From assembly GCA_964408285.1 (NCBI GenBank), contig CAYOYV010000004.1, positions 32,001 through 96,000 on the forward strand: a stretch of DNA of 64,000 nt, written 5' to 3'. The notes beneath the pieces were generated by a model. The model worked only from the letters and a program-made list of their open reading frames with translations. It was not told the origin of the DNA and did no database searches. Below, piece by piece: positions 4,138 through 54,851 of this stretch. Within the stretch, counting starts at the first letter, position 1; each line of letters opens with the position of its first letter. This DNA comes from an uncultured Nitrososphaerota archaeon. Lineage in GTDB: Archaea > Thermoproteota > EX4484-205 > JAAOZO01. Made by a program: the position numbers and the translations under genes.

Positions 4138-4591
4138 CGTTTGAGGCGATCAGATTCTTTATCGTGCTTGAATGGGACAGATATCCGTAATCGAATCTCC
4201 TGATCCTAACGAGCTTCGTCTTATGCCATTTCATTTCCTCCATGACCTCTTTTGCTTGCGAGTATATCCACTTCTGGTCGTATCCTATAGCTATGATATC
4301 GGGCTTCAGTTTCAAGATTATTCTCCTTATGCCACTTTTCAGGTCGTACGTGGAAGGTCCCAGAACCGCTCGGTCAACCGGTTTCAGGGTTCTTATCATG
4401 TATAGTCTGCTCTTTTCATCGAAAGTCGGATCGGCCCCGGTCTCACGCTTGACGAGCCTGTCCCGGGCTACAACAACGACAAGCTTTGCTCCAGGCCCTC
4501 CGGCTGCTTTAGCCCTTTCCAAGTATCTTATGTGAGCCTTGTGTATGAGGTCAAAACGACCTGAAGCAACCACGACCTTGGGCTTAGCCAT
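4115..4591 (-). CDS. ribL: Archaeal FAD synthetase (cytidylyltransferase family)
   Basis: GRFDLIHKAH (HxGH-like), VVVARD, KPDII.IGYDQ, SSTIK; convergent with ribK, 23-nt overlap. Confidence 0.85.
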   Translation of the reverse strand: MAKPKVVVASGRFDLIHKAHIRYLERAKAAGGPGAKLVVVVARDRLVKRETGADPTFDEKSRLYMIRTLKPVDRAVLGPSTYDLKSGIRRIILKLKPDIIAIGYDQKWIYSQAKEVMEEMKWHKTKLVRIRRFDYGYLSHSSTIKNLIASNVKGKRRT

Positions 4592-4607
4592 CCGTAGACG
4601 GGACAAG

Positions 4608-4625
4608 GCATAAAATAAATAAAAC
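4608..4625. promoter_or_regulatory. AT-rich TATA-like region between divergent ribL and tRNA-Lys
   Basis: taaaataaataaaa about 25-35 nt upstream of the tRNA 5' end. Confidence 0.45.
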
Positions 4626-4646
4626 TATCCGCCTGAACCTCGCCGA

Positions 4647-4782
4647 GGGCCCATAGCTCAGCATGGTAGAGCTGCAGCCTCTTAAGCTGAAGGTCGAGGG
4701 TTAGCCTGGGCATGCGGTGCTCAGACCCCGAACAAACCGATGCCTGACTGTAGGCGCTGGGAAAGTCCCTCTGGGCCCGCCA
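4647..4782 (+). tRNA. tRNA-Lys(CTT) with two non-canonical introns in the T-loop (4703-4732 at 55/56; 4737-4765 at 59/60); CCA encoded
   Basis: Acceptor GGGCCCA/TGGGCCC+GCCA; D arm GCTC-AGCATGGTA-GAGC; anticodon loop CT-CTT-AA; removing the two hairpin inserts gives T arm GAGGG-TTCAAAT-CCCTC. Confidence 0.9.
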
Positions 4783-4854
4783 CTTATCAGCAGGTTAACT
4801 ATGAGGATGTTTCTGTGAAATCAAATCGTTATCAAATAATTTCGCTCCAATGAA

Positions 4855-6048
4855 TTGATGCCAACCACTCCTAAGAGGAGCATTTTGTCTTTTCTTGAAA
4901 CCTTATCCGTCGCTCCCATCATATCCCTATTTTACCACGATAGCTGGGTTCAGCGCTTCAAGAAGGTGAGCTATATTGTCGTTCCGTTCTACGAAATCTG
5001 GGATCATAACAACCTACGCGAAGTCGTAGGACACAAGGACATTCACGATTTTCTGCATTTCGATGGTCCTGTAGGACTCTCGAGCATAGGGCCAGATGAC
5101 TACGTCGTGAGCGAGGCCTATTTCTCGGATTTCGTCAGACTATCAACCGAGAACAATTTTGACTTCGTCATCGCTTGGGACGTGCCTACATACGCCGACT
5201 GGCCTGCGGAACTGTCCTGGGAGAACGCGGTTTACGGACTTGAGCAGATAAGGAGACTAGTTAGACAGGGAATTGAAGTCATCGGTCTGCTCAACGGAAA
5301 CAGCAGAACGCAGTTTGAGAAGTGCGCCGATTCGTTGATATCGATGGGCGTTGATAGCGTAGCTGTTCACGCCTCGGATTACCTGAGGCACAGAAAGGAT
5401 TACCTTCTAGCGGGCCTTCTTCATGATTCAGTAAAGACTGCCATTTCGAGATTCAGTAGGACCTTGATTGTTGGAGCAACCGACCCATACCTCATAAAGC
5501 ATGAGGGCAAGGATCTCTTTCCGAACGTTTCAGTATGTGGGTTCAGCTGGTTCATAGACGCGCAGAATGGCTTAGCCTACAGCATCAGGGGAAGGGTCAA
5601 TACGTACGAAAACGATGCCCTTTGCAGTTGCCCTCATTGCAGTACAAGGGAACCAGCTGTGATCTCTAGGTCCGTTCCAGACAGAGTTCTTCACAATTTC
5701 TTGGTCGTTGAGAACTCAATCGAGGGAGAAACCTTTCCTAGCTTGGAGACATCAGACATAGTCCACCGGGGACAGAAGCTCGTAATGGCAAGTGATATCC
5801 ATCTTGGGACAAAGGAGAGCCTGTTGCTTCGTTTCATCGAGATGATGCGGAGGGAGAGGCCGGAAACTCTAGTCTTAGTCGGTGACACTTCCGATTTCAC
5901 CGATTATGACCCCCAACTTCTCCACGATCATGCGAAGTCTTTCTTCAGACTGTTATTTGACATCGGGTGTGAGGTGTATCCTGTTTTCGGGGCGAGGGAT
6001 AGATCAAACCACCGGAACGGCATTGATCAAGGCCGGATTGACACCTGA
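4855..6048 (+). CDS. Divergent tRNA-guanine transglycosylase (TGT)-fold protein fused to a truncated metallophosphoesterase domain
   Basis: IHDFLHFDGP (cf. LHxFMxWDGP), AWDVP, IGLLNG, CSCPHC...HN zinc site; then SDIHLG and LVGD..D phosphoesterase motifs, ending abruptly at GARD. Confidence 0.6.
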   Translation: MMPTTPKRSILSFLETLSVAPIISLFYHDSWVQRFKKVSYIVVPFYEIWDHNNLREVVGHKDIHDFLHFDGPVGLSSIGPDDYVVSEAYFSDFVRLSTENNFDFVIAWDVPTYADWPAELSWENAVYGLEQIRRLVRQGIEVIGLLNGNSRTQFEKCADSLISMGVDSVAVHASDYLRHRKDYLLAGLLHDSVKTAISRFSRTLIVGATDPYLIKHEGKDLFPNVSVCGFSWFIDAQNGLAYSIRGRVNTYENDALCSCPHCSTREPAVISRSVPDRVLHNFLVVENSIEGETFPSLETSDIVHRGQKLVMASDIHLGTKESLLLRFIEMMRRERPETLVLVGDTSDFTDYDPQLLHDHAKSFFRLLFDIGCEVYPVFGARDRSNHRNGIDQGRIDT

Positions 6049-15790: not shown

Positions 15791-16450
15791 TTGCTGCCAT
15801 CTGAGGCTTCGGCTAGGCTAAGGCGTGAGTCCCTGAACTTATGCCAAGAGTTAACCAGAGTGACCCTTGACTGCATAAGGACTCTTCACAACATGATTAC
15901 GGCCTTGTCAGAGGGGAATGCAAGCGAGGCGGTGAGTCTCTTCCCAAGAGTTTCCTCGCTTAAGGACGAGGCCACAAACCTGAAACGATCGTTGGCTGAA
16001 GCCCTGATCTCTGCTGGGGCGATCCTCTTCAGCAGAGAGGACTTCCTTAGGCTCGCCGTTCCATTGACAGAAATGTGTGACGGAGCCGAAGGCGTCGCCT
16101 TTCGCCTCAAGGAAGCATCAAGCCGTAAGGAATTTCCCGAGAAACAGGTGTTGGATGCCGTAAGGGCTCTTTCAGAAGGCGTGTTGGACTGCGCCCTCAA
16201 ATTGCGGGATGTTACCTATTCATTGAATTTCGATATAAGTAAGGTAGAGTCCCTGGTGACTTCTGTAGAGACCTCAGAAAGACAAGTGGATGACCTCTAT
16301 AGAAAGGCAGTCATCAAGCTCGTATACTCGAAAATGGAAGTCCCGAACCTTCTTCTGATGAGGGACGTTCTTGAGATGCTTGAGGAAGTAGCCGACAAGG
16401 CTGAGGACGCGGCTGACGCGTCTAGGATGCTTGCGCTGAGTGTTCTCTAG
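15791..16450 (+). CDS. DUF47 / PhoU-like phosphate transport regulator
   Basis: REDFLRL, E...DDLYR, LE.VADKAEDAAD; helical repeat. Confidence 0.85.
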   Translation: MLPSEASARLRRESLNLCQELTRVTLDCIRTLHNMITALSEGNASEAVSLFPRVSSLKDEATNLKRSLAEALISAGAILFSREDFLRLAVPLTEMCDGAEGVAFRLKEASSRKEFPEKQVLDAVRALSEGVLDCALKLRDVTYSLNFDISKVESLVTSVETSERQVDDLYRKAVIKLVYSKMEVPNLLLMRDVLEMLEEVADKAEDAADASRMLALSVL

Positions 16451-16451
16451 G

Positions 16452-17024
16452 ATGAGCGAGAAGGAAAACCAAGCAAAAGAGAAAATGATTGCGGAATTGG
16501 TAAACGACAGGCTGATAGTCTGGAACGTAGAGCACTCCAGAGCCATCTATAGGAGCGGATACTATGGAAAGCCAATCGGAGTTCCAAAGCCGAAGAATTT
16601 CGAGTTCAATGCTCCACTTACCCTAGATCTGATCGAGGGGCTCCATCTGCTCAGGAGTGGAACGATAGGAATCGTTAAGGGAAACAAGAAGGTAGGTCCC
16701 GCAGCCCTCGAGCGGATGGCCAAGAAGTATCACGAAGGATTCGACATAAAGTACAAAGTGTATGAGGATCTAAGAAAAAAAGGCTATGTAGTGACACCTG
16801 GGATAAAATTCGGCTGCACCTACGCGGTATATGAGCATGGGCCGGGAGTTGACCACGCGCCATTTCTTGTAGAGGTGAAGGAGCAGAATGAATCCGTCAC
16901 AGCTCCGGATCTAGTGAGGGCTGGTAGACTTGCGACAACCGTGAAGAAGCGCTTCGTTTTCGCAATCATAGACAAAAGGACCGGGTCTATTGACTATCTC
17001 GTTTCTAAATGGTGGAAGGCATAG
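16452..17024 (+). CDS. endA: tRNA-intron endonuclease catalytic (alpha) subunit
   Basis: VYEDLR.KGY.V.PG.KFG, catalytic Y (AVYEHGPG), H (DHAP) and K (TVKK); GYYGKPIGVPKPK crenarchaeal-specific-loop-like segment. Confidence 0.93.
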   Translation: MSEKENQAKEKMIAELVNDRLIVWNVEHSRAIYRSGYYGKPIGVPKPKNFEFNAPLTLDLIEGLHLLRSGTIGIVKGNKKVGPAALERMAKKYHEGFDIKYKVYEDLRKKGYVVTPGIKFGCTYAVYEHGPGVDHAPFLVEVKEQNESVTAPDLVRAGRLATTVKKRFVFAIIDKRTGSIDYLVSKWWKA

Positions 17025-53474: not shown

Positions 53475-54851
53475 TCACAGAGTAAATTGCCTGTGATACG
53501 GATTCAGGTCAGAGTCGAGTGGCTCATTGTTCCCGACGAGGTGCTGTACATCCAAGGGCAACCTGTTGTAGACCCCTACTTTCCTACCCTTTTTCCAGAA
53601 CGCGTCTTCAATGACATCATAGAGGGTCTCAAAAACCGGTTTATGCCTTTCAGTGAAACCCAGCAGGGCAACATCGATCATTAAGGCGACCTCATTGCCT
53701 AGGGGATCGTTTGTATACGGAGTTACTGCTCCATATCCCTCTTGACATTCAGAACAGCCCGTATTATGGATGAAAGTGTAGGGCTCTGTGGGGCTGTTCC
53801 ACTTATTGTCCAAGGTCTTGAGTCTCAATCCCTCAAGGTATCTCTTTCCCTGCTGATCTATGAAATTCGATGGTAGATCGTCCTCTGTGGCCTTCACGAC
53901 TGCATCCATTACAACCCGATAAAGCCCCTCAACAGCTTGGTGGAAGTCCTTTTGGCCATTGGTGAAGGGCCTACCCAATCTGAATGTCCTTCTCATAATA
54001 CCATGATAGCCATTGAATGTTGGACTAACCCCCATCGAGACCATATCACCTTCCCTTAGCAGATTGTTTGTCGCAGGTCCTATTACTGTATAGTTCCGTT
54101 GGCCAGCAGTGACAATAGTGGGGAATCCAGTCCTCCCTGCTCCCAGTTCCTTCATGACAAAATCTCCAACTCCGGCCACCTGAACCTCTGTCATTCCAGG
54201 AGTGGATACAGCCAACATGGCCCTGAAAGCAGCATCTGCTATGATGTTCGCCATTCCACATATAGCCAGTTCCACATCGGATTTCTCATACTTTATGAGC
54301 TGAAGGAGTCTCTCATCGAAAACTACCCTATCTGTCCCAAATATCCTCTGGAAAAGGACGACATGTTCATACGGTATGAACTGCGGGCTGGAGAGAATCG
54401 CAAGGGGTTTAGATTCCGATCTCGTGATATCTTTCAGGATATCTGCGAGTGATTCGAAACGAGCGTGTCTGTAGTCCTCATCTGATATCTGGAATTCCCT
54501 CAGAAGGGCAATATCAGCACCCGATTGCTCAACTCCCTCTTCCATGACATGCCCTCCTTCAGAGCCAGCAAGCACAACTGGTGTACCATCGGCTGGAACG
54601 AGAATCCCGTAACGCTCTATGATCGGGTCAAATATTCCAGCGAGCCATGCCACATCGGATCTATCGAGTTCGCTGCCACACGCGTAAGCAATTCCGTAGC
54701 CCTTCATTCTCATTGCATCTTGCACTGCGGCCCACCTCTTCTTGTACTCATCTCTCTCTATTCGCAATCCAAGATTCACTTTGTCTTTGGTTCCCTCAAT
54801 TATCTCAGCCGCAATCTGGATCATTTCTTCTCGACTCGGATTACGCTCCAT
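53475..54851 (-). CDS. M24 (pita-bread fold) aminopeptidase P/creatinase-like hydrolase
   Basis: EY..R...VQ..M N-domain, KS..EL, PG.TE, GYH...RRT, H.TG....E, IED; several metal ligands are substituted. Confidence 0.8.
   Translation of the reverse strand: MERNPSREEMIQIAAEIIEGTKDKVNLGLRIERDEYKKRWAAVQDAMRMKGYGIAYACGSELDRSDVAWLAGIFDPIIERYGILVPADGTPVVLAGSEGGHVMEEGVEQSGADIALLREFQISDEDYRHARFESLADILKDITRSESKPLAILSSPQFIPYEHVVLFQRIFGTDRVVFDERLLQLIKYEKSDVELAICGMANIIADAAFRAMLAVSTPGMTEVQVAGVGDFVMKELGAGRTGFPTIVTAGQRNYTVIGPATNNLLREGDMVSMGVSPTFNGYHGIMRRTFRLGRPFTNGQKDFHQAVEGLYRVVMDAVVKATEDDLPSNFIDQQGKRYLEGLRLKTLDNKWNSPTEPYTFIHNTGCSECQEGYGAVTPYTNDPLGNEVALMIDVALLGFTERHKPVFETLYDVIEDAFWKKGRKVGVYNRLPLDVQHLVGNNEPLDSDLNPYHRQFTL

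Follow-up and report, generated by a model that had tools for sequence, protein, structure and literature searches.

Introduction

In the bulge-helix-bulge (BHB) motif of archaeal tRNA introns, the 5′ strand consists in turn of an outer helix, a 4-nt central helix (H), a 3-nt bulge and an inner helix, each cut lying behind the second base of its bulge. This ruler, which was used throughout the present work, agrees with the definition given in the accessible text of one report, namely two 3-nt bulges with a 4-bp stem between them (PMC3978253).

The closest described systems are the multi-intron pre-tRNAs of Pyrobaculum, Thermofilum and other Thermoproteales, in which at least two BHB-type introns interrupt a single tRNA gene. 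The removal of close-set introns in a given order has already been published, according to the available text of two papers that cite Sugahara 2008 and Tocchini-Valentini 2009 (PMC3728597, PMC8450103). In line with this, tRNAscan-SE 2.0 is described as iterating its intron search, since the last intron may be unable to form its BHB until another one has been processed (PMC8450103). The maximum number of introns per tRNA gene given in the accessible parts of the literature is three (PMC8450103, PMC4033280), and the highest published total for a genome is 71 introns in 46 genes (PMC8450103).

The tRNA-Lys(CUU) gene analyzed in this study resembles these pre-tRNAs in carrying two probable introns of this type, and both of them lie within the T-loop. 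Ordered removal itself is already known; what is new is the lineage in which it would occur and the fact that a single T-loop holds the two introns.

Experimental Section

The whole stretch of DNA that was analyzed, 64 kb of contig C4 of the assembly, is referred to as the window. The tRNA genes were searched for with ARAGORN and Rfam, in the window and in the whole genome (1.82 Mb). The exon–intron junctions of the tRNA-Lys(CUU) gene were fixed by homology alone, independently of splicing motifs. For the shuffle test, the exons and the cut sites were kept fixed, the intron letters were shuffled 200,000 times, and those shuffles were counted that reached the pair counts observed for the central and the inner helix.

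T-loop inserts of the genome were collected by a virtual-splice census, which yielded 7406 candidates; ARAGORN was used as filter and was followed by BHB inspection. For a complete census of the introns in all tRNA genes, a loose BHB filter gave too many candidates per region when used without a scoring model such as that of tRNAscan-SE. The strain comparison covered positions 4560–4860 in four DNA runs, one of which (X9) contributed the upstream flank only.

Results

No tRNA gene was called by ARAGORN in the 64-kb window, and Rfam gave no match at gathering score in it. When RF00005 was run on the whole genome, a sub-threshold partial match of 26.9 bits was obtained for the 5′ part only (contig C4, corresponding to window positions 4647–4714), so that the gene is indeed missed by standard scanners, as a first-pass annotation of this DNA had expected. 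The same annotation had read the T-loop as TT, a 30-nt intron, CAAA, a 29-nt intron and T, and re-reading of the sequence confirmed this arrangement base for base. The features of the locus are collected in Table 1.

Table 1. Features of the tRNA-Lys(CUU) locus and of the endonuclease gene encoded in the window.
Feature	Position	Strand	Description
A/T-rich box ATAAAATAAATAAAAC	4610..4625	+	Candidate archaeal TATA-type promoter; read from the sequence
tRNA-Lys(CUU) gene, two T-loop introns	4647–4782	+	Direct sequence reading
Exon 1, 56 nt	4647..4702	+	Acceptor 5′ strand, D-arm, anticodon arm (CTT), variable loop, GAGGG, T54 T55
Intron 1, 30 nt, tRNA position 55/56	4703..4732	+	Relaxed BHB
Middle exon CAAA, 4 nt	4733..4736	+	C56 A57 A58 A59 of the T-loop
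Intron 2, 29 nt, tRNA position 59/60	4737..4765	+	hBHBh′ only without intron 1
Exon 3	4766..4782	+	T60, CCCTC (T-stem 3′ strand), TGGGCCC (acceptor), discriminator G, encoded CCA
EndA catalytic (alpha) subunit, crenarchaeal type	16440..17024	+	PF01974 (6.2e-30), PF02778 (4.8e-16)

Removal in silico of positions 4703–4732 and 4737–4765 resulted in a 77-nt cloverleaf which was called tRNA-Lys(ctt) by ARAGORN, and no tRNA call was obtained from this program for the forms lacking one intron only. The spliced product could be aligned without gaps with all six intron-less orthologues (64–67 of 74 positions identical), the T-loop TTCAAAT being identical in every case; the mature T-arm predicted earlier is exactly that of these six genes. 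Judged by its orthology and by its cloverleaf, which without the inserts has a 7-bp acceptor stem, a D-arm, the anticodon CUU, a T-loop of the T-T-C-R-A type and a discriminator base, the locus at 4647–4782 is a real gene of an archaeal elongator tRNA-Lys(CUU). When a single intron was assumed instead, no contiguous stretch downstream of 4702 restored the T-loop of the orthologues. The bases that flank each cut differ, and neither junction is therefore able to slide.

A G27–A43 mismatch in the anticodon stem, also pointed out in the first-pass annotation, was present in the ARAGORN drawing of the spliced form. The same G27·A43 is found in five of the six intron-less orthologues, the sixth having G·T, which identifies it as a trait of the lineage and not as a defect. 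The CCA end is encoded at 4780–4782, and in 0/6 of the intron-less orthologues does CCA follow the discriminator.

A BLAST search with the gene against 40 relatives gave matches covering exon 1 only, which ended exactly at query base 56; the six intron-less tRNA-Lys(CUU) genes are among the loci matched. On its own genome the gene matched itself and the tRNA-Lys(UUU) gene only, and ARAGORN called no Lys(ctt) gene in the whole genome. The locus is the only tRNA-Lys(CUU) gene detected in this genome, which is 93.7% complete and in which a second copy is possible. In addition, a 216-nt contig from another organism of the same sample kind (run X8, record 6) matched positions 4667–4702 with six differences; its exon 1 runs directly into an uninterrupted T-loop and T-stem, providing a natural intron-less counterpart alongside the interrupted gene. 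The tRNA-Lys(CUU) genes of five order-level relatives (L009, L010, L011, L015 and L016) did not resemble an acceptor 5′ strand over the first 12 bases preceding the match, which suggests that an intron or a split near position 12/13 has displaced their 5′ end.

The helices and bulges that had been claimed for the two introns, with one A–G mismatch in each central helix, were all present. In intron 1, H is formed by AGGG (A50–G53) and CCCG (4727–4730), with three of four pairs and one A·G, and is flanked by the bulges TT^A and AA^C; the inner hairpin (4704–4713/4717–4726) is paired at nine of its ten positions. The outer helix is displaced and comprises 3 bp only, which makes this a motif of the relaxed HBh′ type, and the pairing of intron 1 occupies the 5′ strand of the T-stem. 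In intron 2, H is formed after removal of intron 1 by TTCA (T54–A57) and GGAA (4760–4763), again with 3/4 pairs and one A·G, the bulges being AA^C and AG^T. Its inner hairpin (4738–4746/4751–4759) is paired at 8/9 positions, and its outer helix is the T-stem itself, GAGGG/CCCTC, with 5/5 pairs once intron 1 has been removed.

Shuffled introns scored as well as the observed ones in 63 of 200,000 cases for intron 1 and in 229 of 200,000 for intron 2, the latter in the form lacking intron 1. By plain pair count the true site of intron 1 ranked eighth, nine of 5435 boundary pairs scoring the same or better, and a register shifted by two bases had one pair more than the true site. The register used by intron 1 appears to be singled out by homology alone.

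Nearest-neighbour folding gave probabilities of 0.00–0.01 for the three G–C central pairs of intron 1, where the minimum-free-energy fold pairs GGGU/ACCC and UCG/CGA instead; enforcing the BHB cost 3.4 kcal/mol at 37 °C and 4.0 kcal/mol at 70 °C. The central helix of intron 2 had a probability of 0.01–0.02 at 37 °C and 0.08–0.10 at 70 °C, and could be enforced at a cost of 6.4 and 4.6 kcal/mol, respectively. As a control, the other 59/60 introns of the genome were folded, and five out of seven had P(H) ≤ 0.15. Folding energy favours neither of the two central helices at the cuts fixed by homology; by this control, however, folding does not discriminate, which weakens the objection, and we do not take the low P(H) of intron 2 as evidence against the model.

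The first-pass annotation had placed an EndA splicing endonuclease at 16452. This position is the second Met codon of an open reading frame (16440–17024) which matched both PF01974 and PF02778. The best solved relatives of its product were 2cv8_A, 3p1z_B, 3ajv_B and 2zyz_B, which we take to be the catalytic subunits of the Sulfolobus tokodaii, Aeropyrum pernix and Pyrobaculum aerophilum enzymes. The product retains the catalytic His and has a Lys opposite K44 of the A. pernix enzyme, a residue of the Crenarchaea-specific loop (CSL), the KPK of the query lying under EKPR of 3p1z_B. Mutagenesis of the A. pernix enzyme, as described in the available text, has shown K44 to be required for relaxed motifs (PMC3241643). 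A second EndA paralogue, encoded on the minus strand of contig C8 (L032, 1477–2130), has Thr where the Methanocaldococcus jannaschii EndA has its catalytic His; it fits a structural beta subunit, with which the catalytic subunit may assemble. RtcB was also found (560.7 bits), and the genome encodes both a ligase and an endonuclease predicted to act on relaxed motifs.

In the primary transcript predicted from the gene, the four bases upstream of the 5′ bulge of intron 2 are AACA, not TTCA, in agreement with the previous claim that the TTCA strand exists only after removal of intron 1. The central helix of intron 2 has 1/4 pairs in the primary transcript versus 3/4 without intron 1, the first five positions of its outer helix have one pair versus five, and its true cut sites rank 201 among 5435 boundary pairs versus 2 among 3275. 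The pair probability of the T-stem was 0.00 in the primary transcript versus 0.99–1.00 without intron 1 at 37 °C, and 0.10–0.11 versus 0.89–0.94 at 70 °C. Intron 1 has the same motif whether or not intron 2 is there. Since a motif is available for both introns only if intron 1 leaves first, the implied order is intron 1 and then intron 2. The ordered splicing proposed in the first-pass annotation is thus supported in silico by the central helix, the site rank and the T-stem probability.

We consider it probable that the locus gives rise to a precursor of about 136 nt, from which the BHB introns at 55/56 and 59/60 are removed in order by EndA and RtcB, intron 1 first. The 3′ end of intron 1 (CCC, with the G opposite A50) would pair with G51–G53 to give a relaxed BHB with cuts at TT^A and AA^C. 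An alpha2beta2-type EndA would then cut out intron 1, and RtcB would join exon 1 to the piece made up of CAAA, intron 2 and exon 3. At this stage the T-stem could form, and T54, T55, C56 and A57 would become one strand able to pair with GGAA in a standard 59/60 hBHBh′, in which EndA would cut AA^C and AG^T and RtcB would seal the mature T-loop. With intron 1 leaving first, the 4-nt exon would always be attached to a larger piece and would never be released free.

An EndA of broad specificity might not need a complete central helix to cut intron 2, in which case both introns would be spliced with no fixed order, the relaxed alpha2beta2 enzyme recognizing the hairpin of intron 2 and the flanking single strands. 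We regard this as unlikely. The primary transcript already contains the inner hairpin of intron 2 (P 0.98–1.00 for the core pairs), but it allows only one of the four central pairs, and its T-stem is sequestered by intron 1 (P 0.00 at 37 °C). Relaxed bulge-helix-loop motifs are described as substrates of crenarchaeal EndA that has the CSL lysine (PMC3241643); however, the relaxed motifs in the accessible text of the published work (hBH, HBh′ and BHL) all retain helix H. Helix H is likewise of marginal stability in several undisputed 59/60 introns. Simultaneous cuts, on the other hand, would free the 4-nt exon, with nothing holding it for ligation.

Ordered removal with intron 1 first can be set beside the other tRNA genes of the same genome, in which at least ten genes in all have T-arm introns. 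The 59/60 design was recognized in six of the eight loci tested in the 59/60 register (Trp, Arg-CCU, Gly-GCC, Ala-UGC, Leu-CAA and Ser-CGA), in which the T-stem outer helix has 5/5 pairs and T54–R57 is paired with the intron 3′ end at three or four of four positions. The Gly-GCC intron has the same TTCA/GGAA helix with the A·G mismatch as intron 2 of tRNA-Lys(CUU), and tRNA-Lys(UUU) is a seventh 59/60 case, with TCCA/TGGA as H (4/4 pairs). A Pro gene has an insert fitting 58/59 and Thr-CGU one fitting 53/54, whereas an intron at 55/56 was observed in no gene other than Lys(CUU). Five further candidates (Pro on contig C3, Pro-CGG on C10, Gln on C1, a minus-strand locus on C14 and Thr on C1) had no BHB in any register tried and are probably false. 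In L030, a relative of the same family, the tRNA-Lys(UUU) gene has by hand reading a single 22-nt 59/60 intron with a perfect TTCA/TGAA central helix.

Intron 2 is an ordinary member of this local 59/60 class whose exon strand has been split, which suggests that intron 1 is the later arrival. It probably entered the splicing motif of a 59/60 intron that was already in place.

The tRNA-Lys(UUU) gene itself (contig C8, 53944–54104, plus strand) showed four apparent intervening sequences. The first, of about 20 nt in the D-stem, had no BHB that could be found; the second, of 17 nt at 30/31, has a perfect hBHBh′ in which the end of the D-stem insert takes part in the outer helix; the third, of 20 nt at 48/49, also has a perfect hBHBh′; and the fourth is the intron at 59/60, of 29 nt. 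Slicing them out in silico gave a 76-nt product which ARAGORN called tRNA-Lys(ttt), with a T-loop TCCAAGT that has C at the normally invariant U55. When the literature was searched for archaeal tRNA genes with four introns, the term was found only in the available text of a red-alga paper.

Directly upstream of tRNA-Lys(UUU), on the same strand (about 53740–53895), a tRNA-Trp gene carries a 66-nt anticodon-loop intron (ARAGORN i(37,66)) as well as a 16-nt intron at 59/60. Long introns of archaeal tRNA-Trp genes often hold a box C/D guide RNA.

About 46 tRNA genes are expected for an archaeon. In the whole genome of 1.82 Mb, ARAGORN called 21 tRNA-like genes, several of them doubtful, and RF00005 gave 17 matches over the cut-off. 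ARAGORN and the Rfam tRNA model thus recover less than half of the expected set, and annotations of metagenome-assembled genomes in such a lineage will under-report tRNAs.

Contigs from three other public metagenome runs span the interrupted gene (X2, 4560–4860; X4, 4649–4860; X8, 4607–4860), and no difference was listed inside the gene, introns included, in any of the three. The occurrence of the same interrupted gene in three other runs shows that it is not an assembly artefact. Compared with the six orthologues, pair 7–66, which spans exon 1 and exon 3, is A–T versus G–C in 6/6, and pair 31–39 is C–G versus G–C in 6/6; these two-sided changes indicate that the tRNA is still selected for pairing. 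The centre of the A/T-rich box lies about 28–30 nt upstream of the 5′ end of the gene, and comparable boxes were found about 30 nt upstream of tRNA-Trp and tRNA-Lys(UUU) on contig C8. The box is a candidate promoter of tRNA-Lys(CUU).

These observations bear on whether the gene is decaying or silent, with the AAG codons left to tRNA-Lys(UUU) or to a Lys(CUU) gene that the assembly lacks. We find this quite improbable, for although both BHBs are imperfect and the assembly is incomplete, the cloverleaf formed by the intact exons is perfect, the compensatory changes point to selection on pairing after divergence from the orthologues, and both insertions are at places where the BHB ruler fits. The promoter-like box upstream, the lack of listed differences within the gene in the three other runs and the fact that the tRNA genes of this genome are as a rule interrupted argue in the same direction. 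It is very improbable that the precursor is processed in the thermodynamically favoured register, which the minimum-free-energy fold and the extra pair of the boundaries shifted by two bases would favour, or by one 63-nt excision into an RNA with a non-standard T-loop, since the alternative cuts leave a product that is not a tRNA, a single excision of 4703–4765 has AGGG unpaired against GGAA in the central helix and leaves a 3-nt T-loop, and only the proposed cuts restore the T-loop of 6/6 orthologues.

The arrangement of two T-loop introns, for which ordered removal is the preferred reading, was found in none of 40 relatives by gene BLAST and in none of the 23 relatives' loci that were read. 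A degenerate exon pattern with two gaps had no match in the genome contigs or in the metagenome contigs, and a pattern also permitting a lone 59/60 intron had none in the metagenome contigs, the window's own records possibly being outside these scans. A blastn-short search of the genome with both introns and their flanks revealed nothing beyond 15-nt matches (best E 0.045) as paralogues, and intron 1 and intron 2 gave a weak local match only when compared with each other.

Loci sharing the 5′ half of the tRNA-Lys gene were found in Brockarchaeota, Nezhaarchaeota/-ales, Methanomethylicota, Thermoproteota and 'Nitrososphaerota' metagenome-assembled genomes, several of them coinciding with the matches in family- and order-level relatives. 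The lineage is most likely a Brockarchaeota-like member of the Thermoproteota outside Thermoproteales. A literature search for tRNA introns of Brockarchaeota gave only a paper on Asgard archaea, in the text that was available.

Discussion

The locus constitutes a fully specified test substrate for the gating of the removal of one archaeal tRNA intron by another: it has two short introns and a 4-nt exon, the gene of the cognate endonuclease is in the same window, and the orthologues fix every junction. Heavy interruption of tRNA genes is extended to a lineage of Thermoproteota outside Thermoproteales, and the known splicing mechanism is left unchanged. A wider picture is put forward only tentatively and is doubtful as a whole: the tRNA set of this genome would be among the most fragmented outside Thermoproteales, a recent insertion of an intron into a splicing motif would have made the order obligatory in tRNA-Lys(CUU), with a 4-nt exon that is never released, and tRNA-Lys(UUU) would have more than three introns.

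As in the Thermoproteales pre-tRNAs, to the extent that these are covered by the accessible literature, the BHB of the last intron forms only after removal of the other, here as seen in silico. The alpha2beta2 EndA of broad specificity is likewise a common feature, predicted here from the genes. In contrast to the Thermoproteales cases, the lineage is Brockarchaeota-like and the two introns share the 7-nt T-loop, where 4 nt separate them. The arrangement also differs from that of nested Thermoproteales introns, because intron 1 is located in the exon strand of the central helix of intron 2 and not inside intron 2. Unlike the intron families described for Thermoproteales (PMC4033280), no intron paralogues were found in this genome.

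In Thermofilum pendens, the available text describes 59/60 as a recurrent BHB site, with single T-loop introns and the junction of permuted tRNAs (PMC3978253), and intron 2 shares this site. Its design is that of seven other 59/60 introns of the same genome and of one in L030. In contrast with the 59/60 introns of T. pendens, the exon strand of the motif is split here by a second intron.

The nuclear pre-tRNAs of Cyanidioschyzon merolae are comparable in that several BHB motifs are removed in order, which was established there by RT-PCR of intermediates (PMC3728597). In that eukaryote, according to the same text, the motifs fold independently and the order is kinetic, whereas the order in the tRNA-Lys(CUU) precursor would be structural.
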